Positions 11,708-64,000 of a stretch of DNA of 64,000 nucleotides are shown here, piece by piece. Position numbers and translations under genes: made by a program. The stretch is from Alphaproteobacteria bacterium (lineage in GTDB: Bacteria; Pseudomonadota; Alphaproteobacteria; Rs-D84). The stretch's first letter is position 1, and every line of letters starts with the position of its first letter. The stretch lies in contig JAFURB010000017.1 in NCBI GenBank assembly GCA_017472065.1, forward strand, positions 5,887-69,886. Direction: 5' to 3'. Below the pieces are notes generated by a model. It worked only from the letters and a program-made list of their open reading frames with translations, was not told the origin of the DNA and did no database searches.

Positions 11708-11709
11708 TT

Positions 11710-11784: not shown

Positions 11785-14700
11785 ATGAAGGGAATTAAGA
11801 TAATTTTTGCCGTATGCCTTGCGTTGCTTGGGATTAGTGACGCGTGGGCCACGGATTCTGATGACGCAGTACGCGCCGCTACGCGTCGTGGTGAAACAAA
11901 TACGGTTACATCTGCACGCAAAAAAACTAATACCCCGGCGGTTTCATCAAATGTAAATGCGGTCACACGCGTTACAAATGCAACCGCAAAACAGGCACAA
12001 ACAATGCGCGAACGCGCAACAACACCCCGCACTGGCAATAATGTGTTAACACGCACATCAACGCCACAAAATAATAAACAGGTATCTGCCCGCACAGCAA
12101 CCAACATATCGTCACGCGCAACGACAACCGATGGCACAAAAAAAACAACCACATCACGACACGCATCGCCTGCGCGCGCCGCGACACGCACACCAACAAC
12201 CACCATCCGAACCAGCACGGCTGCACGCAACGCATCGCGTCGCACATCAATCGCACGCAGTGCCACAACCGACACCGCAAATCTGCGTGATGTGGTAATG
12301 AACGCAAATCACAAAGAATGTCGCGATGTCTTTTACAATTGTATGGATGAATTCTGCGCGAACAAAGACAGTCAACTAAAACGTTGTGCATGTTCGTCAC
12401 GCCTGCATGAATTTGACGGCATAAAAAAACAATTGGCCGTCGTCGAAGATAAAATGTTGGATTTTTCCCAACGTCTTTTAACGGTCAGTATGGATGCCGA
12501 AGATGCGGCCGCCCTGAACATCGCCACCGAAGGGGAACTGGCATTTAACCAAAAAGATACATCCGAATCAAAAAAATTATTGGATGAAATTGCAAAGAAA
12601 TTAAACACTAAATTTGATGACGATTCATTTGACAGAAACCTGACCGCAATATCATTGTCCTTGAACGAAGATGCGGCATTTGACAATGTTGATTCTTTGA
12701 TGGGGGCATCTACGACATTAAAGACCGGCACTGAATTACATGCGGCGGCCCTGCCGGTGTGTCGCGAAATGGCGGCCGAGGTTTGCACCCCCGACCAACT
12801 GGCCATTGCCGAAAGCGGTTATAAAATGATGATTGAACAAGACTGTAATACGGTAAAAAAATCGTATCAATCCCAAACAGATGCCGCCCGCACCAAGGTT
12901 ATGGAAAGCAGCGCGTTACTGGACATGTCGCGCCTAAACACATACCAAGATAGAAATTCAGACGACATATTAACATGCAAACGCAAAATGCTGGATATGT
13001 TAAGTGACACATCGGTCTGTGGTAAAAACCTGGCAAAGTGCTTGGATACAACGGGGCAATATATCAACCCATCAACCGGCGATGCGTTTTTAACCACCAA
13101 TTTGGCAAATCTAAGTACACTTATTAAACGACCAGATGCAAATAACACATGGACCAGCATGCCTGGCAACGAACGTTTTGTGCAACACTTAAATTCAAAA
13201 AAGACATATCTGGAACCTGCGATGGAACATTGCCAAGACATTGCAGATTCTGTGTGGGACGATTTTATCGAAGATGCGTTGGCACAAATAAAACTGGCCC
13301 AGGATGCCAAACTAGAAGAAGTTCGCCAATCATGCACCACACTTACCACACAATGTTTATCTGACACTGCTAAATCATTAACAGATTTTGATGCACGCGC
13401 CCTGTCAACATTTGGTGTTATCGCAGATATGACTGTAAACGCCATGTGTGCTGATGTAAAAACTGCATGTACTGCATTACTGGAAACAACCGGTGGCGGC
13501 ACAGATTGGGCGGGTGGCATGACAGAAATCGCCACCGACACAACATATGAGACAATAATTCAGACATGCCGCGAGGTTGGCCGTGCATGCATTGTTCAAA
13601 ATTGCCGTTCCATTTCTGGCAACTTTGGTCTGTGTGAAAACATTGAAACATCCGTTAATCGCAAGGCAATTATTCGTGGCACATCCTGCTGGGACGATGT
13701 TTTGAAATGCGTTGCCGATGCCGGCGCCGATTCGATTGAAAAAATTACAGCGCAATTGTCATCACGCAAAATCATCCCCGGTCCAGAAAACATTATCAAC
13801 GACGGCGATGAAATTATATCAACAACAACACCGCTTTATTCATTTTATAGTGAACTCTACGACATAACCATTGATGGTAAAAAATATGCTGCCCTGTCAA
13901 GCGACATCAGTGGCAACGGATACGATATTGCCAACTGCAGAATTTCTGGTGTAACCGTCACGGACGATAACGGTAATGAAACAAAATATGAACCAATGCG
14001 TTGTGTATACGACATGTGTGTTGCCAAGGGACAATGTGCCACAACCTATAATGACACATCAACCAAATGCAAAACATGTCGCATTGCCGAACGTATTTGG
14101 GGACATTGCGAAATGGATCCAATAACCCAATTACCTGGTGCAGACGAACACAATCAAATCTTGGCCCCATCTAATCGTGACGAAACAACATTATTATATT
14201 GGTTTGCACTAAATACCGGCACGGAAAATATGGCTGACTCTTGTCGCGACACATCATGCGGCCCCGGCGAAATGTTTAGCGCCACAAAAAATCAATGTAT
14301 CTCTGTCGAAGCAATCAGTAACGATGGCACCGAATGCGAATCCAGAAATCGTATCGCCGTCCCAGGTGCCCAGACAAATTGTTGCAGTGCAACATCAAAA
14401 GATTCGTGGGGCAATTGCTGTGGTGGTGTATTAAAAACACAAATCGCAGGATTCGATGCATCTATAACAGATTCGTATTTTGCCACACTGGACAAAACAC
14501 AAACAACAAACAACAACTACAAGATATGTATCCCAAGTGAGACACAAATCAATTTTGTTGTACAATTTGCCCCATCGGATACCACATATTATACGCTTGG
14601 TCGAAATATACTTGTATGTCTGGGTGATTTATCTGATGGTGGCGATACAAGTGGTGCGTTCCCATCGGGCGACACAATTGAATGTAACGGTCAATACATG

Positions 14701-14919
14701 GTTATAAACCTAGATTCTGGCATGTATTATGCCCCAACCCCATCTGCCCCGTCACCAAACATGTCATACAAAATTGATAATGGTTCGACAACATGCACCC
14801 TTGGGTATGACACATCAACCAACACATGGACATGGACACAAAGTGGTACCGGCGAAACATCATGCACGACATCAATGCCATCCGCAAATGATGGTTGGGG
14901 ACTAATGATACAATACTAG
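11785..14919 (+). CDS. giant secreted cysteine-rich protein, paralog A (1044 aa)
   Basis: Signal peptide MKGIKIIFAVCLALLGISDAWA. T/S/R/A-rich spacer. Signature CRDVFYNCMDEFCANKDSQLKRCACSS at 12319..12393. The ORF-track start 11665 lies inside the tRNA and is rejected. Confidence 0.8.
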   Translation: MKGIKIIFAVCLALLGISDAWATDSDDAVRAATRRGETNTVTSARKKTNTPAVSSNVNAVTRVTNATAKQAQTMRERATTPRTGNNVLTRTSTPQNNKQVSARTATNISSRATTTDGTKKTTTSRHASPARAATRTPTTTIRTSTAARNASRRTSIARSATTDTANLRDVVMNANHKECRDVFYNCMDEFCANKDSQLKRCACSSRLHEFDGIKKQLAVVEDKMLDFSQRLLTVSMDAEDAAALNIATEGELAFNQKDTSESKKLLDEIAKKLNTKFDDDSFDRNLTAISLSLNEDAAFDNVDSLMGASTTLKTGTELHAAALPVCREMAAEVCTPDQLAIAESGYKMMIEQDCNTVKKSYQSQTDAARTKVMESSALLDMSRLNTYQDRNSDDILTCKRKMLDMLSDTSVCGKNLAKCLDTTGQYINPSTGDAFLTTNLANLSTLIKRPDANNTWTSMPGNERFVQHLNSKKTYLEPAMEHCQDIADSVWDDFIEDALAQIKLAQDAKLEEVRQSCTTLTTQCLSDTAKSLTDFDARALSTFGVIADMTVNAMCADVKTACTALLETTGGGTDWAGGMTEIATDTTYETIIQTCREVGRACIVQNCRSISGNFGLCENIETSVNRKAIIRGTSCWDDVLKCVADAGADSIEKITAQLSSRKIIPGPENIINDGDEIISTTTPLYSFYSELYDITIDGKKYAALSSDISGNGYDIANCRISGVTVTDDNGNETKYEPMRCVYDMCVAKGQCATTYNDTSTKCKTCRIAERIWGHCEMDPITQLPGADEHNQILAPSNRDETTLLYWFALNTGTENMADSCRDTSCGPGEMFSATKNQCISVEAISNDGTECESRNRIAVPGAQTNCCSATSKDSWGNCCGGVLKTQIAGFDASITDSYFATLDKTQTTNNNYKICIPSETQINFVVQFAPSDTTYYTLGRNILVCLGDLSDGGDTSGAFPSGDTIECNGQYMVINLDSGMYYAPTPSAPSPNMSYKIDNGSTTCTLGYDTSTNTWTWTQSGTGETSCTTSMPSANDGWGLMIQY

Positions 14920-41606: not shown

Positions 41607-41636
41607 GTCGAAAACAAATCACCGTTTTTTTTCGGC
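41607..41636 (+). terminator. hairpin of module copy 2 (gtcgaaaacaaa-tcaccg-ttttttttcggc) followed by a T-tract
   Basis: Same 5' arm and loop as copy 1. The 3' arm is diverged (one G.U and one mismatch). Followed by attattttttt. Confidence 0.45.
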
Positions 41637-41728
41637 ATTATTTTTTTGCGTTTTTACAACTGTTTTCAATGCATTAACAAGAAAAAACACATTTTGCTTT
41701 TTTTTGATAAGATAAATAAAAGTTTATA

Positions 41729-42005
41729 TCAAAGTTCAAAGTGCAAAGTTCAAAGTGCAATTGTGGAAAAATTAAACACTATCGTCATACCGGCGAAGGC
41801 CGGTATCCACTGTGTTGTTCTTAATTTCGAAACTGGGTGGAATACAATGGACCCCGGCCTAGCATCACCCACAAAATTTTTAATTTTGCAGGCCTCGAAC
41901 GCCGGGGTGACGGCTTTAAGAGTTTCTTAGATAAACTTTCATTTATCAAAGTATTAATTAATAGAATCCACAATTGCACTTTGAACTTTGCACTCTGAAC
42001 TTTGA
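41729..42005. repeat. MITE-like element with 38-bp terminal inverted repeats
   Basis: Left arm tcaaagttcaaagtgcaaagttcaaagtgcaattgtgg (41729..41766). Right arm 41968..42005 is its reverse complement with 1 mismatch. Arms are built of heptamer repeats. Interior has GC-rich palindromes (ataccggc-gaa-gccggtat; ccccggc...gccgggg). Confidence 0.55.
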
Positions 42006-42036
42006 AAAAAAATCCCTGCAATTGCGGGGATTTTTT
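42004..42036. terminator. bidirectional intrinsic terminator downstream of nrdG
   Basis: A8-atccctgc-aatt-gcggggat-T6. Confidence 0.7.
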
Positions 42037-42736
42037 ATTCACGCCATGTAACAGATTGAAACATAGAATTTATTTTTTCACGCATCGCACCGTCATTAAA
42101 AAACTGTTCCCGTGATGCAGAATCTGTTTTGTGTGCCGCATCTTCGAAATGTGGAATATATTTTTGAATTGCGATATCCGATACTCCACGTTCGTTTAAT
42201 ATTTCTGCAATTTTAATTAAATCTGATTTATCGATAAAACGCGGATCGCATGTGATTCGAACCTCAAAATCTTTGCCGGTTGCCAACCACACATCCAATG
42301 ATTTTATCATATTGTCATATGCAATATGTTGTCCGGTCAGGTCCGGATATTTTTCACGCATCGCTTTGAAATCCAACCCAATCCAATCAACCAAATCCGC
42401 CGCACGGCGCAATGTGTCTGGATAAAAACCATTGGTGTGCAAACCGATTTTGAATCCAATTTCCCGAACACGACGCATATATTCGATTGTTGCATCGCCC
42501 TGCATCAATGCTTCACCACCGGAAAAAACGACCGCTTCCAGTTTGCCGACACGCGATTGCAACCAATCAAACACGCGTTCGGGATCATATTCGCCATCAT
42601 GTGGGGTTAATAAATGGGGATTGGAACAATACGCACACCGCAATGGACATCCAACCAAGAACAGCACAGCCGCCAATTTCCCAGGATAATCGATTGTAGT
42701 GAAAGAAACCAATCCCCCAATTTGTACAGATTTCAT
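42035..42736 (-). CDS. nrdG: anaerobic ribonucleoside-triphosphate reductase activating protein (radical SAM)
   Basis: GCPLRCAYCSNPHL (CxxxCxxC); lies downstream of nrdD. Confidence 0.85.
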   Translation of the reverse strand: MKSVQIGGLVSFTTIDYPGKLAAVLFLVGCPLRCAYCSNPHLLTPHDGEYDPERVFDWLQSRVGKLEAVVFSGGEALMQGDATIEYMRRVREIGFKIGLHTNGFYPDTLRRAADLVDWIGLDFKAMREKYPDLTGQHIAYDNMIKSLDVWLATGKDFEVRITCDPRFIDKSDLIKIAEILNERGVSDIAIQKYIPHFEDAAHKTDSASREQFFNDGAMREKINSMFQSVTWRE

Positions 42737-52541: not shown

Positions 52542-53891
52542 ATGACAATGAAAAATAAATTATTTTTAACATCACTGGTTGCGATGACGGTTGCGTGCCC
52601 GTTGTCCAGTGTTCATGCAGAATCATTTCCATCAGATTCATTGATGCAGGAAAACAAGACATATGAATCGGCGGCAACATATTCAAACATGGGTGCATAT
52701 GACGGCGATGTGACCGCTGTGGCGGAATATGCCGACACATTGTACCAAATTGCGGCGGGAACATATCTGCCCGCGGCCAGCGAGGGCATAACCGCATCGT
52801 GTCCTGCCAACAGTTATTGCGCGGGACAAACTGATGTAAAATACAACGAAACAATCGACCAAGGATTAACATCCTGTCCGTCGGGATACCCAAATTCATC
52901 AACGGGCGCCAGTGCACAAACCCAATGTTATACGGCATGCACGGTATCGGCTGCGAACATCGCGCATGCAACGGCGGTGTCTGGCAACGATTATTATGGC
53001 ACGGGTGCGGATACATGTGCGGCGACCGCATGCGAAAACGGATACCACGTATTAAAAGACAACTTCATGATTGTTGACACAACACCATTAATACCCATTG
53101 ATTATGCTAAATCGGGTGACGGATACGCGTATGTAGATAACTATCTCCAGATTCAGAACAAAAATTTACCAGATTCTGGTTTGACCGAACGCTTTACATG
53201 GGCAGTGAATTTTGATTCTGGTACGGTATATGGGCGCGCTACTTATCAGAACTATGATAAAACCGGTGCCGTGGCAGCATTTGCCGATGTGTCAAGTGTT
53301 AGGAATGGCGAAATGGCGGTTGAAGAATACAAATCAAAACTAACGGACATCATTGGCGCGACCAAGGCGACATATATGGCGAACCTGGTAAAAGGGCTGA
53401 TTGATGGCAGCAAAACTGATCAAGACCTAACAGAAGCTCGCTATATTCTGTTTCCCGATGAAATTGATACAAATTACAACTCAGGTAGTTCTATGAATGC
53501 TTATTGCTATTGTCAAATGACCGGGTATAAACCACAAGGTGGCGAATTAAGTTCTATCACAGACACCCCATGGGTATTCAACACAACGTGCACCAATCAC
53601 AATACTTGCACACTAACATGTATAAAATTCTGTGCAGAAACAGTATATGGCTCTTATGGAGAAAACAACGATATTTTTCGTGCTGCTTTATTTGGCGCAA
53701 AGAGTTTTGTTGAAGGAGGCACATGCGAGGCTAATGAAATTAGCATCACATGGACAGACGCCACGCCAGATGACATTGCCGCGAATAACGCCGGCATGTG
53801 TACATACGGCGGTGATATTCGCACACCGGTCAAGGCCGCAACCATCCCAGGTAAGACATTCAAGGGATGGAAGTTCAGCAAAGTGAATTAA
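52542..53891 (+). CDS. secreted cysteine-rich repeat protein (449 aa)
   Basis: Signal peptide (MT)MKNKLFLTSLVAMTVACPLSSVHA. CPANSYCAG, CPSGYPNSSTGASAQTQCY. C-terminal ...GKTFKGWKF repeat-like end. Confidence 0.75.
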   Translation: MTMKNKLFLTSLVAMTVACPLSSVHAESFPSDSLMQENKTYESAATYSNMGAYDGDVTAVAEYADTLYQIAAGTYLPAASEGITASCPANSYCAGQTDVKYNETIDQGLTSCPSGYPNSSTGASAQTQCYTACTVSAANIAHATAVSGNDYYGTGADTCAATACENGYHVLKDNFMIVDTTPLIPIDYAKSGDGYAYVDNYLQIQNKNLPDSGLTERFTWAVNFDSGTVYGRATYQNYDKTGAVAAFADVSSVRNGEMAVEEYKSKLTDIIGATKATYMANLVKGLIDGSKTDQDLTEARYILFPDEIDTNYNSGSSMNAYCYCQMTGYKPQGGELSSITDTPWVFNTTCTNHNTCTLTCIKFCAETVYGSYGENNDIFRAALFGAKSFVEGGTCEANEISITWTDATPDDIAANNAGMCTYGGDIRTPVKAATIPGKTFKGWKFSKVN

Positions 53892-53993: not shown

Positions 53994-54024
53994 TAAAAAA
54001 ATCCCCCGTTTGGGGGATTTTTTT
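53994..54024. terminator. bidirectional intrinsic terminator
   Basis: A7-atccccc-gttt-gggggat-T7. Confidence 0.8.
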
Positions 54025-56566
54025 ACATCTGGATATCTTCGCACTTTTCAACCGGTGCAGATTCTTCACAATTCATCTCGTTCTTGGCACCAATTCCCAA
54101 GAATCCCTTCTTGCTGACTGATGTGCAGTTTTTCGTAACAGTCGATACACAATAATGACAAATACGTGTATCACGGTTAAATATTGACCACATTTCACGT
54201 GTGCCACCCGGCAAATCAATTTTAACCTTGTTTGAACCCAGGCCTGTAAACGAACTGACTGCTTCACTAAACTTTGATGCACCGGCGGTTCCATCCATGG
54301 ATGCAGCCCCACTTGTACTGCCCGAACCGCGACCACCTTGGGCCAACAAACTGTTATCCAGTCCCGCACCAACATCATAACTGATTGCGTATGGTGCCGT
54401 CAGCGGTGTATCCGCCGTCACCGCCCCCAATGTCGCCCCACCTGATACCGGCATCATTTGACACATATACTGGGCAATATCCGCAGATGCATCCTTGGAC
54501 GCATCAGAAATCACCGCATTTAATTTAGCATTATAGTTATCTTGGGCCTGGCGCAGGGCCGATGTTGCAATCTGCATTTTCAATTGATTCAACAAATTCG
54601 GGAAACGACCTGTGGTCTTGGCACCTTTTTTACCTGTAATTTGTGATAAATCACGACCATTGACACAGTATTGAATTTCCGGATCCATTTCAATCATTTC
54701 AATTGTGCGATTGATTGTTCCCGCAATATTGTTCAATTCTTCTTCGATCGCAGAAATAATTCCGTCTGCATTGGCAACATCCTTGTTCTTTTCACGAACC
54801 GTTGCAATATAGTCTGCAACACCAATCTGACCTGGTTTTAACGCATCGCCATCATCCGTCACACTGGTTGATGCCATCCCCATTTTAATCGAACCAAATG
54901 AAATCATACCTGTTACACGATACACATTTCCATCTTTTTGTGAACGAATACTGCCCGTGCCGATGGTATCATCAGATGCAAAACGGTTACAGTCGGTTGT
55001 AGAACCACAAACCTCGGCCATTTTGGCATCAACTAAGTTCTGGCAATTATCCAATGCCGAATTATCAATATTCAAATACAATCCCATCAACATCGAATCC
55101 AAATCATCCATCGAGAATTTTGGATTATTCGCCTTGCACACGACTAAACTATCAATCGGACAAATATCATGGATATAGTTATAATCCATACCGATACAAT
55201 TTTGGAAATTTTCACCACAACGTGTATCCGCGGTAAAACAATCCTTAACTTCCTGGGTACACGCATCGACACGCATTGCCGCCAGTTTATCAACAACATA
55301 TCCCCAAATCAGCGGTTCCATGCGTTCACATCGATCAATTTCCACCTTGCAGAAACTGCGTGCCATATCCGGACGCGACAAACATGCATCCATCGTATCG
55401 ACACCCTTGCCAACGATATCATCTTTACACGCCGTCTGGATACAATCAGAAATATCAGTCAAACAAGACTGACGCATTTTTGATTCAACCGCGCTTTCTG
55501 CGACACGAATTGTCGGCGCCGCTTCGCGCAGAAACGCCGGCCAAACATTATTACGCACCGCCACACATTGGTCCAACACGCGTTCGCAAATTATACGCTT
55601 CGCGTTCAGCATTTCCATCGTTGATGCCGTAATATCATAGACATCAACAGTTGCAACCGTGGTACCCGCTGTACTTTCTGCGGCATTATTCTGCATATTC
55701 TCTGATGCGATTGTGGAAACACAATTTTCCCAGTTTTCACCACACGCATCTTCTGTACGCATACACTTCTTAAATTCGACCATACATTGCCCCAGATCGA
55801 ATTTATTCGCACTTTCAAAACTTTCTTTTAGTGCGGTACGAACATCAGATTCCGCATTTGCCATCGCCAGGTCAGCCTCGGCTGATTTGGTTGCGATAAC
55901 ATTTTCAAATGCTTTACAGTCCGACACAATCTGGCGCGAATACATCTGGCGCAACAATTCCAAATCAGATGAACACGACTGTGGCACCTGTTCTACGCAC
56001 AATTCTTCGGCAGCGCGGAACAACGCATCACCGGACAAATCCGCGATTGAATCAGATTCATCTTCGAAAACTTCATCTTCTTCGTATGATGTTTCAAACA
56101 TCGCCAACAAATCAGCGCGTTTTTTCGCCTTGGTATCTGTTTCTTCTAAATCATCGACACTTACAACATTTCCATTTTCGTCATATTGACGCGTTCCTTT
56201 GAAAATAATATCTGCATCTGCGCCGGCTTTAACCTTTTCAACCTCTACTGTTGCGACACGTTCGGCCTCGGCCAATTTTGATTGAATATCTGCAAACTTT
56301 TTTTCGAATTCGATTGATTTATCACTGCACGCACAACTGCCACCATTTGTGTTATCCGTGATACAAAACTGGTCCATGCACCCATAAAATGCATCATAAC
56401 ATTCCTGGTCATAAAGGCCGGTTGCCGCAACCTTAGTACGGACCGTTGTGCCTTTTTGAATTGCCGATTGTTTTGTTGTCTTTTTTGCAGCCGCCGCCAA
56501 TGCATCACCAGAATACAAAGACAGAACAGCAACCAAGGCCCCACACAGTGTGCTAAATTTTTTCAT
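54023..56566 (-). CDS. giant secreted cysteine-rich protein, paralog B (847 aa)
   Basis: Signal peptide MKKFSTLCGALVAVLSLYSGDALA. Signature CYDAFYGCMDQFCITDNTNGGSCACSD (56327..56401). Ends ...CEESAPVEKCEDIQM. Confidence 0.8.
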   Translation of the reverse strand: MKKFSTLCGALVAVLSLYSGDALAAAAKKTTKQSAIQKGTTVRTKVAATGLYDQECYDAFYGCMDQFCITDNTNGGSCACSDKSIEFEKKFADIQSKLAEAERVATVEVEKVKAGADADIIFKGTRQYDENGNVVSVDDLEETDTKAKKRADLLAMFETSYEEDEVFEDESDSIADLSGDALFRAAEELCVEQVPQSCSSDLELLRQMYSRQIVSDCKAFENVIATKSAEADLAMANAESDVRTALKESFESANKFDLGQCMVEFKKCMRTEDACGENWENCVSTIASENMQNNAAESTAGTTVATVDVYDITASTMEMLNAKRIICERVLDQCVAVRNNVWPAFLREAAPTIRVAESAVESKMRQSCLTDISDCIQTACKDDIVGKGVDTMDACLSRPDMARSFCKVEIDRCERMEPLIWGYVVDKLAAMRVDACTQEVKDCFTADTRCGENFQNCIGMDYNYIHDICPIDSLVVCKANNPKFSMDDLDSMLMGLYLNIDNSALDNCQNLVDAKMAEVCGSTTDCNRFASDDTIGTGSIRSQKDGNVYRVTGMISFGSIKMGMASTSVTDDGDALKPGQIGVADYIATVREKNKDVANADGIISAIEEELNNIAGTINRTIEMIEMDPEIQYCVNGRDLSQITGKKGAKTTGRFPNLLNQLKMQIATSALRQAQDNYNAKLNAVISDASKDASADIAQYMCQMMPVSGGATLGAVTADTPLTAPYAISYDVGAGLDNSLLAQGGRGSGSTSGAASMDGTAGASKFSEAVSSFTGLGSNKVKIDLPGGTREMWSIFNRDTRICHYCVSTVTKNCTSVSKKGFLGIGAKNEMNCEESAPVEKCEDIQM

Positions 56567-56591
56567 GCTTCTCTCCCCTTATATGCCAAGA

Positions 56592-58730
56592 TTACATATT
56601 AACATCTTCGCATGATTCAATTTCCTGGCAAAACTCTTGTTCGCCACCCGACAGCGCGCCACCAACACCGGCACCAACCGCACCAACAATACCACCAATC
56701 GCAGTTCCCCACCCGGCATTAATCATTGTTCCCGCCGCCGCGCCACCAGACAAACCGCCCGCCGCCGCTTTCAGTGCAGATGTCGCCTTGGATTCTCCAC
56801 CTGTTTCACAAACCTGTTGCATACGACAAACATGACAGTTACGCAAATCTGGTTCAAACACAACACTGCGGATATAACTGTAATTCTTGTCCGACTTGTC
56901 TGGTGTTTCCACCTTGTATGTGTTATAACAATTTGCTTCTGCTTCTTCTAAATCCTGTTGCCGTGACAATTCTGCAATTTTTGTTTCCAATGCACGCAAC
57001 GCACGATTTTCTGCACCGATACGCGCAATCATTTTGGCCGAATTAAATACAGAATCCCCCAAACTGCGACGACCTGCTGGTTTTTGACTATCCATACACG
57101 CGGCAACTGTGACATCTTTTTCAAACTGCTTAAAGAAATCATCAACGGCTGTTATCGAATTATCACGCACCGTTGCCCGCAAGGCCGCAAATCCAGATTC
57201 ATCTGATGGCAATTCCATTAACGATTCAACCGTCGAATCTGACGGCAAACATGCCATATCTGTTCCACAAACCTTACCCAACTGTTCGCCAAAATAGTTC
57301 ACACATCCCTGCATCAACTGATAGTCCATCTGTAACAACGCCGCCTGAACAATTATGTCAAATTGGCTTTCATTTTTACACGACGGGAACATATTCTGGG
57401 GACACAATGCCACAATCTCAGATGTCTTTTTCCCGACACATTCTGGTGAATTAAAGTTTTCACCACATTTGTCACGCAAACACGCATCAATATCATTTTG
57501 ACAGAATTGTGTACGCAGATAGAACAATTTATCATTTACAACCGTTTTTAATCCTGGAATCAAAGAATCACACTCGTCAATAATCGGACAAATACCAGCC
57601 GCAACATTAACATCTGACAAACACGCAGAATTTGTTTCCGTAGAACAACTGTCTTCCAAACAAACCTGAATTTGGGCCAGACATGTCTGGCGACGATATT
57701 TATCTGCATATTTGGCGGCATCAACCAATATCGCTTCTGATTCCGCTTCCCAATCTTTTAATACATATTCCCGCACCGCCATACACTGTTCCAGAACATT
57801 TTCACATGCATTTGCACGACGTCCCAACAAATCTGCATCTAAACAGTTTTCAAAGTTCGAACCACAACCACCCTTGTCCGCGATACACGACTTATACGCC
57901 AACAAACACTCGCCCTGGTTGTACTTGTTTGTTGTATCCAGCATTTCCAATCTCGCTTTGCGTACTGCGGCCTCGGCCGTGCGCTTATTGGCCTGGGCAT
58001 TAGTTTTTTGTTCATTCAAATACAAACTGTACGCCTTACAGTCGGCCGTAACCTGGCGCTGATACAGCATTTCTTCCATATCCGCCTTTTTGCCACAGGC
58101 TTCTAATTCTGCGCTGCAAAAATCTGCCGCCATAGAATACAAACCATCACCGATATAAACATCAGAATCCAGTTCTTCTTCGTCATAGTCATTATTTAAC
58201 CACTCAGAAAAACTTAACCCCGATACCCGCGAACTTTTTTTGGCCGCCTCGCTTTCACCAAACACCAACTTCGCCTTGGCCCCTAATTGCTCGCGTTCAA
58301 CCCCTTCGGTGTAAAGTTTATCGGCCTCTTCTTGAATTTTTTGAATTTCCTGTATTAAATCTTTGGATTTTTCAATATTAGATGAACACGCGCAACGATA
58401 TCCTTCGGATTCATCCAGCAAACAAAATTCATCCATACATGCACGATACGCTTCGCGACAATTTTCATTAACCTCTGGCGCGGGGGTATCATCTTCGCTA
58501 CCATCGTCACCTGGTTTTTCAACATCAGGCTTTTGTTCTGGCACCGTCACTTCGTTCTTTACAGGGACCGACACAGAAATATTTCCATTTGAATACGCAG
58601 ACAATGTCGGCATACGCGCCGCAACATTTGAACCACGATTAACACCGACACGCGCCGTTTCATCGCGCGATGCAGCCATCGCAATTCCCGGAATTACACA
58701 TAACAATGTTGCTAAAATTCTTATTTTCAT
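56592..58730 (-). CDS. giant secreted cysteine-rich protein, paralog C (712 aa) with C-terminal glycine-zipper segment
   Basis: Signal peptide MKIRILATLLCVIPGIAMA from ATG 58730. Signature CREAYRACMDEFCLLDESEGYRCACSS (58386..58460). GWGTAIGGIVGAVGAGVGGALSGG (56643..56714). Ends ...CQEIESCEDVNM. Confidence 0.8.
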   Translation of the reverse strand: MKIRILATLLCVIPGIAMAASRDETARVGVNRGSNVAARMPTLSAYSNGNISVSVPVKNEVTVPEQKPDVEKPGDDGSEDDTPAPEVNENCREAYRACMDEFCLLDESEGYRCACSSNIEKSKDLIQEIQKIQEEADKLYTEGVEREQLGAKAKLVFGESEAAKKSSRVSGLSFSEWLNNDYDEEELDSDVYIGDGLYSMAADFCSAELEACGKKADMEEMLYQRQVTADCKAYSLYLNEQKTNAQANKRTAEAAVRKARLEMLDTTNKYNQGECLLAYKSCIADKGGCGSNFENCLDADLLGRRANACENVLEQCMAVREYVLKDWEAESEAILVDAAKYADKYRRQTCLAQIQVCLEDSCSTETNSACLSDVNVAAGICPIIDECDSLIPGLKTVVNDKLFYLRTQFCQNDIDACLRDKCGENFNSPECVGKKTSEIVALCPQNMFPSCKNESQFDIIVQAALLQMDYQLMQGCVNYFGEQLGKVCGTDMACLPSDSTVESLMELPSDESGFAALRATVRDNSITAVDDFFKQFEKDVTVAACMDSQKPAGRRSLGDSVFNSAKMIARIGAENRALRALETKIAELSRQQDLEEAEANCYNTYKVETPDKSDKNYSYIRSVVFEPDLRNCHVCRMQQVCETGGESKATSALKAAAGGLSGGAAAGTMINAGWGTAIGGIVGAVGAGVGGALSGGEQEFCQEIESCEDVNM

Positions 58731-58863
58731 GATAATCCACCCTACAATAGTTTTAGTTAATTTTATCAAACATTTAGACTTGGCACAAGAAAAATAAAAA
58801 ATTCTTGCAATTTGTCCCGGGGGGCAATATCATTACCAACGGAAAAAAAACCAAGGATTTTAC

Positions 58864-59112
58864 ATGGCAAAAGATGATGTAATCGTTTTCAGTGGCACCG
58901 TCGAAGATAAATTACCCAACACAATGTTCCGGGTAAAACTTGAAAACGGCCACGAAATTTTGGCAACCGTATGCGGCAAAATGCGTAAGGCACGCATTTG
59001 GGTCAACGTCGGTGAACGTGTACGCGTTGAAATGACCCCATACGATTTGGACAAGGGACGCATTACGTTCGTTGAACGCAATCGCCCAACACCAGACCAA
59101 TCAAATCAATAA
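58864..59112 (+). CDS. infA: translation initiation factor IF-1 (with short C-terminal extension)
   Basis: [42 protein letters not shown]. Confidence 0.95.
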
Positions 59113-59141
59113 AAAAATCCCGCACAACGCGGGATTTTTTA
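59111..59141 (+). terminator. intrinsic terminator after infA
   Basis: atcccgc-acaac-gcgggat followed by T6. Confidence 0.8.
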
Positions 59142-59187
59142 TTAGTATTTTTTTACATATTTTGATATCATACACATTGTATAAATA

Positions 59188-62067
59188 ATGAAACGGATTT
59201 TGATTTTTATCATGACGTATATCGTCAGTGTCGGTATTGCCGACGCTGCTGTTCGTGATACCAATGCAATATCACGAAAATCAGCATCAACAAACAATTC
59301 TGTTGTATCGCGCACCAATACCACACAACGAACAAACGCCCGCACAACAACATCGCGAGCAACTGTATCTCGTCAACCCGATAAAAACACATCCCGCACA
59401 ACTACATCGCGTTCGCAATCCAACGTACGCACCGGGACCACATCACGCGCCGCGCGTGCAACAACTACATCACGCGCCGCCACCATGACACCGCGCACAT
59501 CAAATACAAAGGTTTCACGTTCTGCCACAAACATATCCCGCCCTGCCCGTGCGGCATCAATTACCGCATCACAATCACAGACATTTGGTACGGGATACAA
59601 CGCGTGTCGCGATGCATACTTTACATGCATGGACCAATTTTGTGCCACACAAAACGAATCGTACCGTCGCTGCACATGTTCATCACGACTGAACCAGATT
59701 AAATCCCGTGAAAACCTGTTATCACAGACGGCTGAACAATTACAAGATTTCAAAGACTTTAACCTTAGTGTGATTGATAAATCCGCCGCCGAGGTCAAGG
59801 CAATGATAAACGCCACATCGGGTGAATACATCGCATCATCATCCAGCGACAGATCTGAATCCGCGAAACAGTTATCCAGTATCGGTTCTATCCTGTCCCA
59901 GGCAAAATCAAAATCATTATCCACCGCCGGCACTGTGGATATTGGTGGTGACATTAAACAGATTTGGCAAACAACCGATCTTGCCAACGGGGCAGATATC
60001 GCGAACCTGACGGGTGAATCATTATACAATGCGGTCCATGCCCAGTGCAGTCAAATGGTGGCGGAAACATGTGAATCTAAATCAACCCTGAACATGGTGG
60101 TTTCTGCGTACGGTATGTATATCGAAAACGATTGCACCACCCTGTCAAACAGTTTGGATTCCAAAACCAATGCAGCCAAGGGTTCTGTGCGTGACACCGA
60201 ACGTGAAATGCACAACGCACGCCTTGACAACTATGATGCCCACAATTCAACATCTATTAATGATTGTGTTGCCCTGGTACGCGCAGACATAACGGCCAAC
60301 ACAGCATGCGGACCTGACTATGTACACTGTCTGGATGTAACCGGTCGATATCTAAATCGTGAAACGGGCGAACCAATTTACACATCTGAATTCTATCAAT
60401 TAAACGGCCAGATTTCATTATCTGGCAACATCCTTACCAACCAGACCAACCGCATGATTGTTGCCGAATTGAACCGCATGCGTAGTTTTGCAAATCTTAG
60501 TCTGGATACATGCCGCGATTTGGCCGACGATGTATGGGACGAATTCGTCCGCCAGGCCATAACTGAAATATACCAGGGCCAACAAGAACGCATCCGTACG
60601 GTCAAAAACGAATGCTTGGATGTTGTAAACGCGTGTTATGATGAAAAGAATCAGTCATTAAAAGACTTTAGCAATGTCAAAGAACAATTATTATTGGGCC
60701 AGCGCCTTGAACTATCCGAAGAACTATGTCGTGAAAAATTAGATGCCTGTTCCAATCTTTACGGTGGCGGTTCTGACGGCCTGCAAGAATTGCTGGTCGC
60801 GATGCACGAACTGACCGATTCCAAGATTGCCAAACAATGTCGCGTAACCCTGCAAGAATACGCGCGCGACATCTGTGCAGTCCCCAGCAACGACACCCTG
60901 CACGCATATCCATATTCATGCCGCGTATATGCCCCTGGCGAACAAAAGTATGCCCAAATCTACGCATGTAACCAACAGTTATGGTCAACCGAAACCGGAA
61001 ATTATTCATCCAGTTACATCCCACCCACAAATGACGGTAACGGTGGTTCTGGGTCAACACCGGGCATACCAACTGTATCTAATTATTCATGTCCAGCACT
61101 GCTTAGATACACCAGTTGTGCCGAAGGATATTACATGACACTGAACGGTGTATACAACAATGGCGAACCACAAATCGGCAATCAATGTACACCGTGTCCC
61201 GATGGATATACATGCGCCGGCGGCACCGCAGACAAGAAATCAATCGAACCAGACACACCCGAAAATCCGGACTCTGACACACCTGCCACAGACCTGGACA
61301 AATACGGACACGACTGCGGCGACTATGCGGGCAGTTTGTACCAACGCCTTGTTCGCTATGCAATCCAAACATGTATTCGCCCATCTGATGCGAACAGTTC
61401 GGATTACTCTTTATCCATTGATGTTTTACAAGATGTAAATGCCGTTATGGATTCAATCCGTGTTGACATGGGCAAATCATTGGCATACGAATGTGAACGT
61501 CTGGGTGGCACATGGGTTGACGCAATGTGGATTGATAACATCGACAAAGGTGAATGCAATGATCAAGTATGCATCCCAGATATAAAAGGTGCAGATAATA
61601 TCCACGACAAGACAGGCGACACACTGTACAAAAAATTCTATGATGAAACAGGCGCAAATACAAAATGGGGATATTGCAAACCAGACAATGGCACCAGCAA
61701 TGGCACTGGTTCCAACGGCGGCGATTCTGGCGGCAACAGTGGTGGCAGTTCTTTGGCCTGTACAGAAGGCGAAACATATACAATTACACTGGACAACACA
61801 ACAAACAGCGATTGTTGCCCAGAATCAGGCATATCAACCACCTCCCAAGAAGTTAGCGTTGTATGTGGCGAATTTCCAAAACTGTCGGTGATACGCGCAA
61901 CATGCACAACAAACCCCAATTGCGTATTAAGTTATTATTCAGATAACAAAACCGACCCATCTGACCCGGCCGCCATATACTTTAGCAGTAACGGAGAATC
62001 TCCTTCAATATACGGAAATGCCGCACTTAAAACAATCTATTCATATTGGGGTGAAATAGAAGATTAA
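59188..62067 (+). CDS. giant secreted cysteine-rich protein, paralog D (959 aa)
   Basis: Signal peptide MKRILIFIMTYIVSVGIADA. TTTSR-type repeats. Signature CRDAYFTCMDQFCATQNESYRRCTCSS (59605..59679). Collinear with paralog A. Confidence 0.8.
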   Translation: MKRILIFIMTYIVSVGIADAAVRDTNAISRKSASTNNSVVSRTNTTQRTNARTTTSRATVSRQPDKNTSRTTTSRSQSNVRTGTTSRAARATTTSRAATMTPRTSNTKVSRSATNISRPARAASITASQSQTFGTGYNACRDAYFTCMDQFCATQNESYRRCTCSSRLNQIKSRENLLSQTAEQLQDFKDFNLSVIDKSAAEVKAMINATSGEYIASSSSDRSESAKQLSSIGSILSQAKSKSLSTAGTVDIGGDIKQIWQTTDLANGADIANLTGESLYNAVHAQCSQMVAETCESKSTLNMVVSAYGMYIENDCTTLSNSLDSKTNAAKGSVRDTEREMHNARLDNYDAHNSTSINDCVALVRADITANTACGPDYVHCLDVTGRYLNRETGEPIYTSEFYQLNGQISLSGNILTNQTNRMIVAELNRMRSFANLSLDTCRDLADDVWDEFVRQAITEIYQGQQERIRTVKNECLDVVNACYDEKNQSLKDFSNVKEQLLLGQRLELSEELCREKLDACSNLYGGGSDGLQELLVAMHELTDSKIAKQCRVTLQEYARDICAVPSNDTLHAYPYSCRVYAPGEQKYAQIYACNQQLWSTETGNYSSSYIPPTNDGNGGSGSTPGIPTVSNYSCPALLRYTSCAEGYYMTLNGVYNNGEPQIGNQCTPCPDGYTCAGGTADKKSIEPDTPENPDSDTPATDLDKYGHDCGDYAGSLYQRLVRYAIQTCIRPSDANSSDYSLSIDVLQDVNAVMDSIRVDMGKSLAYECERLGGTWVDAMWIDNIDKGECNDQVCIPDIKGADNIHDKTGDTLYKKFYDETGANTKWGYCKPDNGTSNGTGSNGGDSGGNSGGSSLACTEGETYTITLDNTTNSDCCPESGISTTSQEVSVVCGEFPKLSVIRATCTTNPNCVLSYYSDNKTDPSDPAAIYFSSNGESPSIYGNAALKTIYSYWGEIED

Positions 62068-62123: not shown

Positions 62124-62825
62124 ATGAAACAGAAATTTATACTATCATTGATGTTAATACCATTTGCAACCGCATCACATGCGGCAATAAACTGGTGGGA
62201 ACAGGCAACCGTTTGTCGCCTGGATCCATCCAAATGTTACAGCAATATGGGCATCGGATATGCAATTGACGAATGGGACAGTGATGCGGACTGTCGCGGG
62301 AAAAAGATTATTTGTGGCGCGGCATTAAAACCACAATCAGACAACGATTGGTCTATGTCAAAATACGACATAAAAAGTCGCAATGGCATCAATCCAGACT
62401 TTGACATCGATGTATTAAATGGCACATGTTTTGGTGCGCGCAAAACCGTATCCAATGGTTCCCAGGCATATTATAACAATGTTCTGGTCAATGTGTTCTG
62501 TCCTGGGGTTCTGGAAAACTTTTACGATTACGACGAAATTGAAAATGTTGAAACAGGTTCTATCTTGACCAAATCCGAACAACCACGTTGTGATAAATTG
62601 GCAACATATGGATATGTAAATGTCAAGAACGGTCGCTGCTATGGCAAACAATATTCTGAATCAGAATACTACATTGATTGTTCGCGCGGCGACAATGATG
62701 TACGTTTGGTTATCTTAAACGGTGCCGAATACACAGATCACAATGACAACAGCCCACGCACCCCCAACGATGCGGATGCTATATTTGACGAAATGCTTAA
62801 AATTGCTGCTGATTTACGAAAATAA
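62124..62825 (+). CDS. secreted cysteine-containing protein (233 aa), partner of paralog D
   Basis: Signal peptide MKQKFILSLMLIPFATASHA. Starts about 56 nt after the stop of D. ATG 62112 is an alternative start. Confidence 0.65.
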   Translation: MKQKFILSLMLIPFATASHAAINWWEQATVCRLDPSKCYSNMGIGYAIDEWDSDADCRGKKIICGAALKPQSDNDWSMSKYDIKSRNGINPDFDIDVLNGTCFGARKTVSNGSQAYYNNVLVNVFCPGVLENFYDYDEIENVETGSILTKSEQPRCDKLATYGYVNVKNGRCYGKQYSESEYYIDCSRGDNDVRLVILNGAEYTDHNDNSPRTPNDADAIFDEMLKIAADLRK

Positions 62826-62827: not shown

Positions 62828-62853
62828 CACCCGCCACCTGGCGGGACTTTTTA
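62828..62853 (+). terminator. intrinsic terminator
   Basis: cccgcc-acct-ggcggg followed by acTTTTT. Confidence 0.65.
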
Positions 62854-62903: not shown

Positions 62904-64000
62904 TTAGAAATCATATCTGAACTTTAACAAACCTGTTTGCGATGTATAATCTTGGTGCAAATCCAGTTCATAGTTCAATGATACTTCTAATCCACGATAT
63001 TCCGCAGTCAGCCCGATTCCAAATTCACCCCCCAGGCGGCTCAGACGATCGACATCCACATAATATGCCGACGCACCCGGCACAACAACCGTTGCCGTCG
63101 CATCATCGGACAAGAAATCATATGTCATCGCGGCACGCATTGTTGGACTGAATTTAACCGCAGAATCCGATTCGATTGTAAATGCATATTTCAAGCCTGC
63201 AACCCCGGACAAGAAATCTGCATCCATACCTGCGATTTCACGGTTCATGACATCAACATGATCTTCCTGGGAAACATGCAGATAGCGCATCCCAAATTCT
63301 GGTGTAACACCATTTGCAAAATCATAACCGAACATTGCCTGGGCGCCATATGATTTAGTTTCATATTCATCGTTCAACAGATATCCAAATACCATTGACG
63401 CATCGGCATAGTCTGATTTTGTATAATTCAATGTTGCGTTTACATACCATGCGGCTGGCTTATACTGAGCATACATGAATATAGAATTATTTTCTACATC
63501 CATATTGCGCCCATCGGCATGGATATCAGAATTACTGAACGCATAACCACCACCGATTGTTAACACATTGTCAATCAATGTATCGCCACCGATTGCAAAC
63601 CCACGCGTATAACCATGGAATTTGTCTGCGAATTTAGACTTGTTAAACATACCCTGGGTCCAAACACCGGCACCGGTTACATCGCCACCGGCACGTCCCG
63701 TCGCACCGCCACCAATTGCAGACATACGGCCGGCCGCCATTGTGACAACCTGGTTCTGGACAGATGCCGCCACCGATTGAGATACCGGTTTTGTATCTGG
63801 GTTTGCCTTGGCCATTTCTTTTTCAACCAATGCAATATCGCCATTGTTTAACGCGGCTTGGGCGCGCAAAGAAACCTGTTGAATTGTTGCATCTGTTGAT
63901 GCGGCCAGACCTGACACAGCACCTGCGGCGGCAATCGATGCACCGGTATCCGCGGCAATCGACTGGGCATCACGTGTGGTCAATGTAGCCTTTGTATTAT
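62904..64000 (-). CDS. autotransporter beta-domain protein (5' part outside window)
   Basis: Frame remains open to the right window edge. Beta-barrel region GVWTQGMFNKSKF...GFAIGGD... ends LLKFRYDF. Confidence 0.75.
   Translation of the reverse strand, partial: NTKATLTTRDAQSIAADTGASIAAAGAVSGLAASTDATIQQVSLRAQAALNNGDIALVEKEMAKANPDTKPVSQSVAASVQNQVVTMAAGRMSAIGGGATGRAGGDVTGAGVWTQGMFNKSKFADKFHGYTRGFAIGGDTLIDNVLTIGGGYAFSNSDIHADGRNMDVENNSIFMYAQYKPAAWYVNATLNYTKSDYADASMVFGYLLNDEYETKSYGAQAMFGYDFANGVTPEFGMRYLHVSQEDHVDVMNREIAGMDADFLSGVAGLKYAFTIESDSAVKFSPTMRAAMTYDFLSDDATATVVVPGASAYYVDVDRLSRLGGEFGIGLTAEYRGLEVSLNYELDLHQDYTSQTGLLKFRYDF

Follow-up and report, generated by a model that had tools for sequence, protein, structure and literature searches.

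A lineage-specific family of large, exported, cysteine-rich proteins in gut Alphaproteobacteria of the order Rs-D84

Introduction

What role do four large, cysteine-rich, exported proteins play among the housekeeping genes of a reduced alphaproteobacterial genome, and how would so many cysteines be oxidised in an anaerobe? The genes, here A to D, lie in a stretch of 64,000 nucleotides (the window, about 7% of the genome) from a member of Rs-D84 / Enterousia, a group that is widespread in the guts of humans, rodents, birds and ruminants and has genomes below 1 Mb. The organism is probably an obligate symbiont. The four genes total 10.7 kb, about 1% of such a genome, and are kept in fixed positions throughout the lineage. 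They are obvious candidates for the envelope or contact interface of Rs-D84 cells and, used as antigens or as FISH or immunocapture targets, could help to make the cells visible and to enrich them.

A protein family without recognised relatives

All four open reading frames named in the original prediction are present, A and D on the plus strand and B and C on the minus strand (Table 1). At 712-1044 aa their products are large, not giant as they had been called. The proposal that they are paralogs sharing one architecture was borne out by BLASTP, which was significant for every pair (A-D, E = 2.6e-54; B-C, 3.5e-48; A-B, 1e-21; B-D, 1.3e-16; C-D, 1.8e-10; A-C, 8e-8). The cysteine signature C.{6}CMD[EQ]FC.{9}C.CS, for which identical spacing had been claimed, is exact at aa 179, 56, 91 and 140 of A, B, C and D, and a relaxed six-frame scan of the window found no further copy. 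The landmarks noticed downstream of it correspond to invariant alignment columns, but the shared core is longer than the roughly 300 aa first estimated, extending over 430-470 acidic and, by prediction, predominantly alpha-helical residues. One 29-residue element, C-x6-C-x6-CGxN[FW]xxC, is duplicated within the core (self-comparison, E = 4.5e-4); as it is the only one, we rejected internal repeats as a general architecture. The C-terminal halves diverge, as had been noted: the B C-terminus is 41% identical across orthologs, versus 88% for core segment 301-480.

A family HMM was built from 154 sequences; in the window it matched A, B, C and D alone (E from 1.6e-167 to 3.8e-64), the next-best reading frame scoring E = 0.025. 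Among 1.84 billion proteins we found 878 cluster representatives at E <= 1e-3, of which 545 reached E <= 1e-30, and more than 576 family copies were confirmed in genomic data. Where the source is named, it is a gut MAG labelled 'Candidatus Enterousia', Alphaproteobacteria or 'Rickettsiales' (order Rs-D84, genomes <1 Mb), with hosts ranging over chicken, human and ruminants; the exceptions are a small number of Muribaculaceae or Lachnospiraceae records, which we take to be mis-binned. Every named database homolog is annotated as a hypothetical protein.

The statement that the signature belongs to no recognised family also stood. The core of A-D had no match above noise among Pfam-A, NCBIfam and PHROGs profiles, and no Pfam family recurred at E <= 0.05 in 50 diverse family members. 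Profile searches with the C-terminal halves of A-D (Pfam and others) gave nothing recurrent, and PDB sequences gave 0 matches at E <= 10 with profiles from either 4 or 50 sequences. In the literature, the signature motif appeared in no paper and we found no description of these proteins. An AF2 model of B from a 134-sequence alignment was of moderate quality (mean pLDDT 64, pTM 0.36), with long helices at pLDDT 70-85 in its core; against PDB and BFVD, Foldseek with this moderate model returned 0 matches at E <= 1e-3 and only non-specific long-helix matches, all at E > 0.09. Structural searches of this kind had been suggested originally and were run for B and for N62 (see below), neither giving a match. 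For the core domain, then, neither Pfam nor PDB holds a relative, and its fold may turn out to be new once it is modelled better or solved experimentally. Taken together, it is well supported that A-D belong to an uncharacterised protein family specific to the Rs-D84 / 'Candidatus Enterousia' lineage.

Could the reading frames instead be decaying genes, chance ORFs or other annotation artefacts? This is effectively refuted by the invariant cysteine columns, the conserved synteny and the occurrence of orthologs, intact and of full length, in some 80 species; public gene calls from independent assemblies, moreover, give identical lengths (959, 712, 847 and 233 aa for D, C, B and N62); the chance that the ORFs are non-functional is negligible.

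Table 1. Positions of the four paralogs, their parts and associated features in the window.
Feature	Position	Strand	Description
A	11785..14919	+	1044 aa; 42 Cys in mature protein
A signal peptide	11785-11850	+	
A spacer	11851-12306	+	basic, T/S/R/A
A core	12307-13734	+	
A signature motif	12319..12396	+	CRDVFYNCMDEFCANKDSQLKRCACS
A C-terminal region	13735-14916	+	divergent, Cys-rich
Autotransporter-domain ORF	34220-35344		
NrdG	42035-42736		class III RNR
NrdD	42978-45002		class III RNR
Terminator-like hairpin	54002..54017	.	bidirectional; after B, end of C-B transcription unit
B	54023..56566	-	847 aa; 36 Cys in mature protein; second gene of C-B pair
B C-terminal half		-	predicted beta region
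B tail	54026-54073	-	NCEESAPVEKCEDIQM
B core	55112-56413	-	
B signature motif	56324..56401	-	CYDAFYGCMDQFCITDNTNGGSCACS
B spacer		-	short, basic
B signal peptide	56495-56566	-	
C	56592..58730	-	712 aa; 36 Cys in mature protein; first gene of C-B pair
C C-terminal tail	56595..56741	-	nearly invariant across species
C tail end	56595-56639	-	after hydrophobic segment; QEFCQEIESCEDVNM
C tail hydrophobic segment	56640-56741	-	glycine-zipper-like; AAAGTMINAGWGTAIGGIVGAVGAGVGGALSGGE
C core	57351-58472	-	
C signature motif	58383..58460	-	CREAYRACMDEFCLLDESEGYRCACS
C spacer		-	acidic
C signal peptide	58674-58730	-	
infA	58864-59112	+	followed by its terminator
D	59188..62067	+	959 aa; 37 Cys (odd)
D signal peptide	59188-59247	+	
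D spacer	59248-59592	+	basic, T/S/R/A
D core	59593-60987	+	
D signature motif	59605..59682	+	CRDAYFTCMDQFCATQNESYRRCTCS
D C-terminal region		+	divergent, Cys-rich
N62	62124..62825	+	233 aa; exported orphan; 9 invariant Cys; directly 3' of D
Terminator-like hairpin	62830..62845	.	bidirectional; after N62, end of D-N62 transcription unit
Autotransporter-domain ORF	62904-63983		

Gene context and evolutionary rates

The setting among housekeeping genes was confirmed, and the arrangement is conserved in about 80 species. C lies 25 bp upstream of B. Almost all of the 80 species loci retain this order and the order D-N62, the latter being recorded in about 60 loci. Between C and D lie infA and its terminator. 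The Pom-tRNA-A-pth-polA context is also kept in two further loci. N14, the gene downstream of A, is not conserved beside A orthologs, and its comparison with N62 revealed no relationship between the two. With 44-46% GC, the four genes resemble the window as a whole (43%), in agreement with the original view that they form no obvious island. This composition, the fixed synteny and the lack of any relative on IMG/VR (phage) contigs led us to reject phage, mobile or island cargo.

Median ortholog identity was 67% for B, 69% for C, 69% for RNase HII, 78% for PGK, 54% for D and 43% for N62. The divergence of B and C is thus roughly as slow as that of RNase HII; D and N62 change much more quickly than housekeeping genes do. 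Conservation of B and C at the level of a housekeeping enzyme means that their role must be something central.

Export signals and domain organisation

Each ORF begins, as predicted, with what by eye is a Sec-type signal peptide (K/R, a hydrophobic stretch and an AxA site), with predicted cleavage at AWA|T, ALA|A, AMA|A and ADA|A. No lipobox L-[AS]-[GA]-C is present at the cleavage sites of A-D; the cysteines that occur in three of the signal peptides (FAVC in A, STLC in B, TLLC in C) are not in lipobox sequences, and the signal peptide of D has no cysteine. The low-complexity spacer described after the signal peptide is present and variable in all four. Those of A and D (152 and 115 aa) are rich in T/S/R/A, with a pI of 12 and a net charge of +18; that of B has 28 aa and a net charge of +6, and that of C is acidic and 68 aa long. 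No slippage-prone DNA repeats were found in these spacers.

Single members among the 50 examined carry a C-terminal Big_2 (5.6e-10), Ephrin_rec_like (PF07699, 1 of 50 representatives, E = 1.9e-8) or Flg_new domain (3.8e-6). In the C-terminal regions of A-D, no Ephrin_rec_like or furin-like repeats (PF07699 and related) were found at E <= 1. Neither an autotransporter translocator (PF03797) nor a YadA anchor is present in A-D; an autotransporter domain was found in two neighbouring ORFs (Table 1), indicating that the search could detect such a domain. We recognised no outer-membrane translocation module, sorting signal or other route across the outer membrane in A-D, so they may be periplasmic.

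The C-terminal tail of C contains the most hydrophobic non-signal window in A-D (Kyte-Doolittle 1.51 over 19 residues). This conserved tail resembles glycine-zipper anchors in composition and hydrophobicity, and weakly matches a glycine-rich segment of phage tape-measure proteins. Pfam glycine-zipper models (PF05433, PF13488) gave no match at E <= 1 to C or to its C-terminal 252 aa.

Cysteine content and predicted disulfides

About 20 core cysteine columns are invariant across 150 representatives sharing <= 50% identity. Most of these cysteines are spaced as i/i+7 pairs on helices, near the helix ends. Without correction for shared ancestry, as in all our parity statistics, the number of cysteines is even in 98 of 122 full-length representatives, with 143 even versus 10 odd in the B clade and 37 versus 10 in the A clade. 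B has 36 cysteines in 75/76 species and C has 36 in 66/67. Additional cysteines were gained in even-sized sets, 268/327/380/395 jointly and 443 with 477 (phi 0.97), and the modal counts (28, 36, 38, 42, 30, 22) are not confined to multiples of four. As a guide to disulfide connectivity, covariation gave no more than co-occurrence at clade level, since there is no variation in the core cysteines. An even-cysteine bias was reportedly proposed by Dutton et al. in 2008 as a criterion for structurally disulfide-bonded exported proteins. That work is discussed in 10.64898/2026.03.05.709764. In mature proteins the family has this bias, D being systematically odd and its partner N62 likewise odd. Judging from these patterns, each protein is probably held by about 18-21 disulfide bonds.

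In D, where 23 cysteines are invariant across the clade, the count spans 24-43 and is odd in 51 of the 58 species having N62, over seven distinct odd values (p = 2.4e-9, uncorrected, shared ancestry ignored); the remaining 7 of 58 orthologs are even. N62 has 9 cysteines in 27/29 database homologs and in 58/59 species loci, one ortholog having 10. These odd counts suggest that D and N62 are joined by an intermolecular disulfide, N62 being the proposed covalent partner of D. The AF2 model of N62 (pLDDT 72) had no Foldseek match; a chaperone, lectin or oxidoreductase identity for N62 found no support there.

How would such bonds form? The class III RNR noted originally is indeed encoded in the window, and the tension perceived between disulfide-rich exports and an anaerobic lifestyle is real, as the Rs-D84 lineage is reported to be without respiratory chains (PMC12306168). 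Quinone-dependent re-oxidation by DsbB or VKOR would then have no evident electron sink. The original prediction had proposed a search of the genome for Dsb-type oxidoreductases; within the part covered, the large and small ORFs of the 64-kb window (about 7% of the genome), there is none. Thirty-six strictly conserved cysteines in a non-respiring anaerobe bear on which bacterial disulfide-forming pathways remain missing.

Comparison with known systems

The chlamydial OmcA and OmcB, which together with MOMP give the envelope rigidity through disulfide cross-linking, resemble A-D in being exported, very rich in cysteine and encoded in a reduced-genome, host-dependent Gram-negative bacterium. However, there is no sequence similarity (the Chlam_OMP3 and Chlam_OMP6 profiles did not match A-D), OmcB is largely beta whereas the core of A-D is predicted to be alpha-helical, and, in contrast to the chlamydial outer-membrane complex, the disulfides here would be mostly intramolecular, judging from cysteine parity. 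Chlamydia also has DsbA and DsbB, of which we saw no counterpart in the 64-kb window. Among the neighbours of A-D in the window are, however, a porin of the Protochlamydia Pom type and an autotransporter in which a Chlam_PMP signal is faintly recognisable. The Helicobacter Hcp proteins (Sel1-like), likewise from host-associated bacteria, are secreted and alpha-helical, and their disulfides bridge helix pairs through cysteines at fixed short spacing, which is also a feature of A-D. No Sel1 (PF08238) was found in A-D or in 50 family members, however, there is no 36-residue periodicity, and A-D are much larger, with added spacer and head regions.

The structural principle, in which two cysteines a fixed number of turns apart on one helix would pair with two on the antiparallel helix, recalls the CHCH (twin CX9C/CX3C) proteins of the mitochondrial intermembrane space. 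Those are small single hairpins that eukaryotes oxidise with Mia40/Erv1; A-D show no homology to them and have CX6C or CX7C spacing. The trypanosome VSG N-terminal domain and Plasmodium DBL are large, mostly helical extracellular coat or adhesin domains that combine conserved cysteines with more variable regions, as do A-D, but we found neither sequence nor Foldseek similarity and no sign here of antigenic-variation machinery, and the family of A-D is bacterial, slowly evolving and low in copy number per genome (four in the window). Finally, the tail of C, GWGTAIGGIVGAVGAGVGG, shares GxxxG-type periodicity and hydrophobicity with SlyB/Pcp and the Rickettsia 17-kDa antigen (Rick_17kDa_Anti, Gly-zipper_Omp). 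Unlike those anchors, it is missed by the Pfam models at E <= 1, comes without a lipobox and lies C-terminally in a 712-aa protein, followed by a conserved CxxxxxC-ED-x-x-M tail.

Possible functions

The original prediction of a surface coat, adhesin or host-interaction system may hold. Sec signals, cysteine parity, the tail of C and the occasional C-terminal domains speak for this, while the slow evolution of B and C speaks against a classical variable adhesin. More specifically, and tentatively, our preferred reading is that A-D form a scaffold and attachment layer of the envelope or surface that is peculiar to this lineage, is made rigid by disulfides and carries variable C-terminal heads. 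Each member would be exported by Sec and its signal peptide cleaved, leaving a presumably disordered spacer, and intramolecular disulfides would fasten adjacent helices to one another, giving a stiff structure that withstands proteases and shear. C and B, from one transcription unit and with 36 cysteines each, would be a slowly evolving structural pair, C being held in a membrane by its glycine-zipper-like segment, and D would be linked by a single disulfide to its operon partner N62. The polycationic N-terminal tails of A and D could attach to a partner cell's surface or to an anionic polymer of the envelope (LPS or peptidoglycan), with the faster-evolving, cysteine-rich C-terminal regions as exposed, interacting ends. 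Exposed adhesins seldom show the housekeeping-like conservation seen in B and C.

That conservation, together with the absolutely fixed cysteine count of B and C, would fit a scaffold confined to the periplasm, in which rigid helical struts or tethers connect the two membranes and the peptidoglycan, the glycine zipper anchors C, the basic tails hold on to peptidoglycan, and the whole replaces envelope-stabilising systems lost in genome reduction. The presence of Sec signals alone, with no recognisable module for translocation or sorting at the outer membrane, the long predicted helices and the core synteny beside infA, pth and polA are consistent with this. We nevertheless regard it as rather unlikely, since variable cysteine-rich C-termini with an occasional Big_2, Ephrin_rec_like or Flg_new domain are typical of extracellular proteins, D and N62 diverge much faster than housekeeping genes, and the periplasm of a non-respiring anaerobe is unlikely to keep about 18 disulfides oxidised. 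A reducing environment, to be expected from obligate anaerobiosis, a class III RNR and the reported absence of a respiratory chain, would suit a thiol or metal function, with the cysteines binding Zn, Fe or Cu or buffering redox state or sulfide; CxCS, which is invariant, might for example bind Cu(I) or be redox-active, and the window holds no Dsb gene. The strong even-number bias and the gain of cysteines in even-sized sets make this improbable, as do counts that are not multiples of 4, i/i+7 helical spacing in place of metal-type CxxC or CxxxxC, and the lack of a His, Asp or Met ligand pattern beyond the CMD motif.

Signal peptides, predicted high disulfide content and variable C-termini would also be expected of effectors or toxins that are secreted into the lumen of the gut or passed to a partner or host cell, their disulfides shielding them from gut proteases. 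The lineage is reported to lack most biosynthesis and standard transporters, and a partner-dependent life has been proposed for it (PMC12306168), which would agree with such a role as well as with the attachment layer proposed above. Yet C has a conserved membrane-anchor-like segment, searches of Pfam and PDB matched A-D to no family of toxins or effectors, and four paralogs with fixed synteny that evolve slowly from chicken to human to ruminant are unlike arms-race effectors, so that we give this explanation little credence. Returning to the surface scaffold, a bolder version, which we consider rather doubtful, is that A-D and N62 constitute a disulfide-stapled helical apparatus for attaching to and living off a partner cell, and that it needs an undescribed, quinone-independent route of oxidative folding. 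If true, this apparatus would be the physical interface between sub-1-Mb, transporter-poor gut Alphaproteobacteria and their partner cell.

The Four Genes and Their Shared Core

All four predicted ORFs, designated A to D, were found in the window, and the lengths of D, C, B and N62, the exported orphan gene product encoded directly 3' of D, also appear in independent public gene calls on contigs having an identical B protein (959, 712, 847 and 233 aa, respectively). The proposed cysteine signature, C.{6}CMD[EQ]FC.{9}C.CS, occurs in exact form once in each protein, and no fifth copy was found in the window by a relaxed six-frame scan. When a family-core HMM was compared with the frames of the window, A to D were matched with E-values of 1.6e-167 to 3.8e-64 and the next frame with 0.025; all six pairwise BLASTP comparisons among the four proteins were significant (E 8e-8 to 2.6e-54). 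The original prediction was right about a shared alignable core followed by divergent C-terminal halves, and too low in its estimate of about 300 aa, as the core spans ~430-470 aa. It contains 36 columns that are invariant in A to D, 22 of them cysteines. The sole internal duplication is a 29-residue element, C-x6-C-x6-CGxN[FW]xxC, found in the core (B 261-282 vs. 436-457). Sec-type signal peptides can be read from all four sequences, with K/R residues, a hydrophobic stretch and AxA, and none has a lipobox. The low-complexity spacers that follow are T/S/R/A-rich in A and D, where they have a pI of 12 and a net charge of +18, and the cores of A to D are acidic (pI 4.3-4.8).

Coordinates of the family genes, their terminators and other envelope-related or cysteine-rich features
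Feature	Position	Strand	Remark
Paralog A	11785-14919	+	
Paralog B	54023-56566	-	
Paralog C	56592-58730	-	
Paralog D	59188-62067	+	
N62	62124-62825	+	
Bidirectional terminator	54002-54017		after C-B
Bidirectional terminator	62830-62845		after D-N62
infA	58864-59112	+	translation initiation factor IF-1, 82 aa; between C and D
infA terminator	59112-59140		strong
Cysteine-rich ORF	14928-16298	+	signal-peptide-like N-terminus
Cysteine-rich ORF	20446-21228	+	signal-peptide-like N-terminus
Cysteine-rich ORF	36486-37283	+	signal-peptide-like N-terminus
Cysteine-rich ORF	40514-41638	-	signal-peptide-like N-terminus
Cysteine-rich ORF	52542-53891	+	signal-peptide-like N-terminus
Porin	9946-11526	-	Protochlamydia outer membrane protein family (Pom, PF17251, E 5.9e-10)
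Autotransporter beta-domain	34220-35344	-	
Autotransporter beta-domain	62904-63983	-	

Spread and Host Lineage

A profile of the four cores was run exhaustively with HMMER against 1.84 billion representative proteins and returned 878 clusters at E<=1e-3, or 545 with the threshold set at E<=1e-30; among the matches listed, all share the same layout, in which an N-terminal offset of ~100-250 aa precedes a full core. A genome scan confirmed more than 576 family copies, which is a lower bound, and no copies were found on viral contigs. Every named homologue is a "hypothetical protein," and neither the motif nor a description of these proteins was found in any paper.

The homologues come from gut MAGs named "Candidatus Enterousia," "Alphaproteobacteria bacterium" or "Rickettsiales bacterium," and one family-bearing source is a circular chromosome of 958,618 bp. 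Enterousia belongs to the order Rs-D84 and has MAG genomes of ~0.75-1.0 Mb; the TCA cycle, the respiratory chain, amino-acid, nucleotide and lipid biosynthesis and standard transporters are all reported absent, and life as an obligate symbiont or parasite has been proposed (PMC12306168; PMC13196213). The window encodes the class III RNR that had been claimed for this bacterium, as NrdD and NrdG, together with glycolytic genes, polA and clpXP, and its envelope-related genes include autotransporters, a Pom-type porin, SurA and PBP1. This content agrees with the published picture of Enterousia. Family members also occur in two assemblies without a gut label, an activated-sludge metagenome and one with the isolate label "Zod_Metabat," for which faecal input or relatives of the lineage living outside the gut are possible reasons.

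Genomic Context and Conservation

C and B are separated by 25 bp on the minus strand and D and N62 by 56 bp on the plus strand; each pair ends at a bidirectional terminator. Since infA, with a terminator of its own, is located between C and D, D must have its own promoter and C-D is not a simple divergent pair. The order N62-D / infA / C-B was found again in essentially all of the 80 species-level loci compared. In related loci, the distance between the C and D orthologs fits the retention of infA there. The neighbours of A are a Pom-like porin, tRNA-Leu and pth-polA, a context shared by two metagenomic loci, and the gene after A is not conserved next to A orthologs. It had been claimed that these genes reside among housekeeping genes and not in an island; their GC content is that of the genome and their arrangement is conserved, so A to D are core genes of the lineage.

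Median ortholog identity across loci is 67% for B, 69% for C, 54% for D and 43% for N62, with RNase HII (69%) and PGK (78%) as comparison genes. Within B orthologs, core residues 301-480 are 88% identical, compared to 41% for the C-terminus.

In some species, an additional paralog resembling B (33-35% identity; at ~210 in locus L014 and ~3 in L056) stands at the edge of the conserved cluster, the site of an autotransporter in other species; family copy number therefore varies between species. The stretch directly upstream of A (11622-11736) contains a tRNA-Leu(aag) and, right after it and ~50 bp before the start codon of A, 3.9 perfect copies of a TCATATC heptamer in an array (11710-11736) that could be a slippage-prone element in the A promoter or leader.

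Cysteine Counts and Predicted Disulfides

In 150 representatives with at most 50% mutual identity, ~20 core cysteine columns are invariant or nearly so, and core cysteines mostly form i/i+7 or i/i+8 pairs. The mature protein has an even cysteine count in 98 of 122 full-length representatives. Counted from the motif to the stop codon, there are exactly 36 cysteines in B in 75 of 76 species and in C in 66 of 67. Cysteines specific to the B/C clade (268, 327, 380, and 395) occur as a set of four, and positions 443 and 477 co-occur (phi 0.97). The D clade has 23 invariant cysteines and a total that ranges from 24 to 43 across species; this total is odd in 51 of the 58 species having N62 and takes seven different odd values (binomial p 2.4e-9 without phylogenetic correction). 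N62 has nine invariant cysteines, and nine in total in 27 of 29 database homologues and 58 of 59 species loci.

The simplest reading of these counts is that nearly all family cysteines would be engaged in intramolecular disulfides, while D and N62 would each keep one unpaired cysteine for an intermolecular bond, either between D and N62 or in homodimers. The testable predictions are 18 disulfides from 36 cysteines and a D-N62 cross-link. No Dsb-like genes were detected within the 64-kb window. Recent work has stressed gaps in bacterial disulfide pathways (10.64898/2026.03.05.709764), and at least 18 predicted disulfides per protein, in an anaerobe reportedly without a respiratory chain, bear on the missing pathways of disulfide formation.

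Structure, Location and Possible Function

An AF2 model of B, built from a 134-sequence alignment, was of moderate quality (mean pLDDT 64, pTM 0.36, core helices 70-85). Long helices, up to 58 residues in length, make up the modelled core, with cysteines mostly near helix ends; beyond it come a mixed region of lower confidence and a small beta unit at the C-terminus. Foldseek with this moderate model had no hit in PDB or BFVD at E<=1e-3, and family sequence profiles had no match in PDB. The N62 model is mainly beta with a C-terminal helix (pLDDT 72), and no structural neighbour was found for it.

We consider it well supported that A to D belong to an orphan family, restricted to one lineage, whose members are exported via Sec, are predominantly helical and have a core under strong purifying selection, and equally so that, judging from cysteine counts, they are probably multiply disulfide-bonded. 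The family is robust and lineage-defining for enigmatic gut bacteria, and offers concrete, testable structural predictions. With such conservation, the possibility that the ORFs are non-functional has practically no weight. A metal or thiol function without disulfides, against which the even and paired cysteine counts speak, is improbable. In how it works, the family comes closest to four known systems without being a member of any, namely chlamydial cysteine-rich envelope proteins, Helicobacter Hcp proteins, CHCH-type twin-CXnC hairpins, and the helical disulfide-stapled coat and adhesin domains of parasites; all membership tests run for these systems came out negative. We assign it to a known general kind, the cysteine-rich proteins that host-associated microbes export to their envelope or surface; the domain family itself is undescribed.

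The tail of C, AAAGTMINAGWGTAIGGIVGAVGAGVGGALSGGE then QEFCQEIESCEDVNM, is almost invariant across species and is the most hydrophobic 19-residue window of A to D besides the signal peptides (Kyte-Doolittle 1.51). It resembles glycine-zipper membrane segments, was not detected by the Pfam glycine-zipper models, and has a weak PHROG match to tape-measure proteins over the same segment. B and C share a terminal C...CED[IV]xM tail. A set of 50 diverse family members contained individual proteins with a Big_2, Ephrin_rec_like or Flg_new domain, which are extracellular domain types. A to D showed neither an autotransporter barrel nor a lipobox nor a known sorting signal. Tentatively, A to D may together build a scaffold and attachment layer in the envelope or at the surface. 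C-B would then be a conserved membrane-anchored structural pair and D-N62 a covalent heterodimer, the polycationic tails of A and D would bind anionic polymers of the envelope or of a partner cell, and the variable cysteine-rich C-terminal regions would be the exposed ends. A purely periplasmic scaffold, favoured by the lack of a known sorting signal and opposed by the extracellular domain types, is rather unlikely, and there is little chance that the proteins are released effectors, given a candidate membrane segment in C. Thus, of the initial proposal of an uncharacterised family acting as a surface coat, adhesin or host-interaction system, the first part stands and a surface or adhesin role is plausible, though unproven.

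Other Cysteine-Rich and Envelope Genes

Five further ORFs with signal-peptide-like N-termini contain 16-32 cysteines each (3.6-8.6%) and have no Pfam or NCBIfam match. As cysteine makes up 0-2% of the window's beta-barrel outer-membrane and cytoplasmic proteins, the cysteine-rich exported proteome looks genome-wide. Motifs of the type C-P-x-G-[YT] occur in several of the five and in the C-terminal regions of A and D. Weak similarity links the C-termini of 20446-21228 and 40514-41638 (33.8% over 80 aa, E 6e-4). A near-identical stretch (..NGDLFSTS..ILSQFLA.CQPDFMP.PKDR..) is present at 20304-20468 (+), just upstream of the former ORF, and in the first ~35 codons of the latter; it resembles not coding sequence but a 5' leader or regulatory element that recurs at two related genes. 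At 41723-42011, ~85 bp before the annotated beginning of 40514-41638, a 45-nt inverted repeat (93% complementary, with TCAAAGT heptamers) surrounds a 199-nt segment. Its possible identities are an invertible promoter (inverton) and a miniature transposable element; no recombinase was noticed in the vicinity, and no Rfam family matched.

With the Pom porin and the autotransporters, this alphaproteobacterium has envelope components of a chlamydia-like type. In a related locus (L081 383-3664), the neighbour of N62 is present in full length, as an autotransporter of 1093 aa that gives a faint Chlam_PMP signal. At 170-5177 (+), the gene for a bacterial alpha-2-macroglobulin precedes one for a PBP1C-type bifunctional penicillin-binding protein, a classic periplasmic protease-defence pair that is retained here in a genome of <1 Mb.
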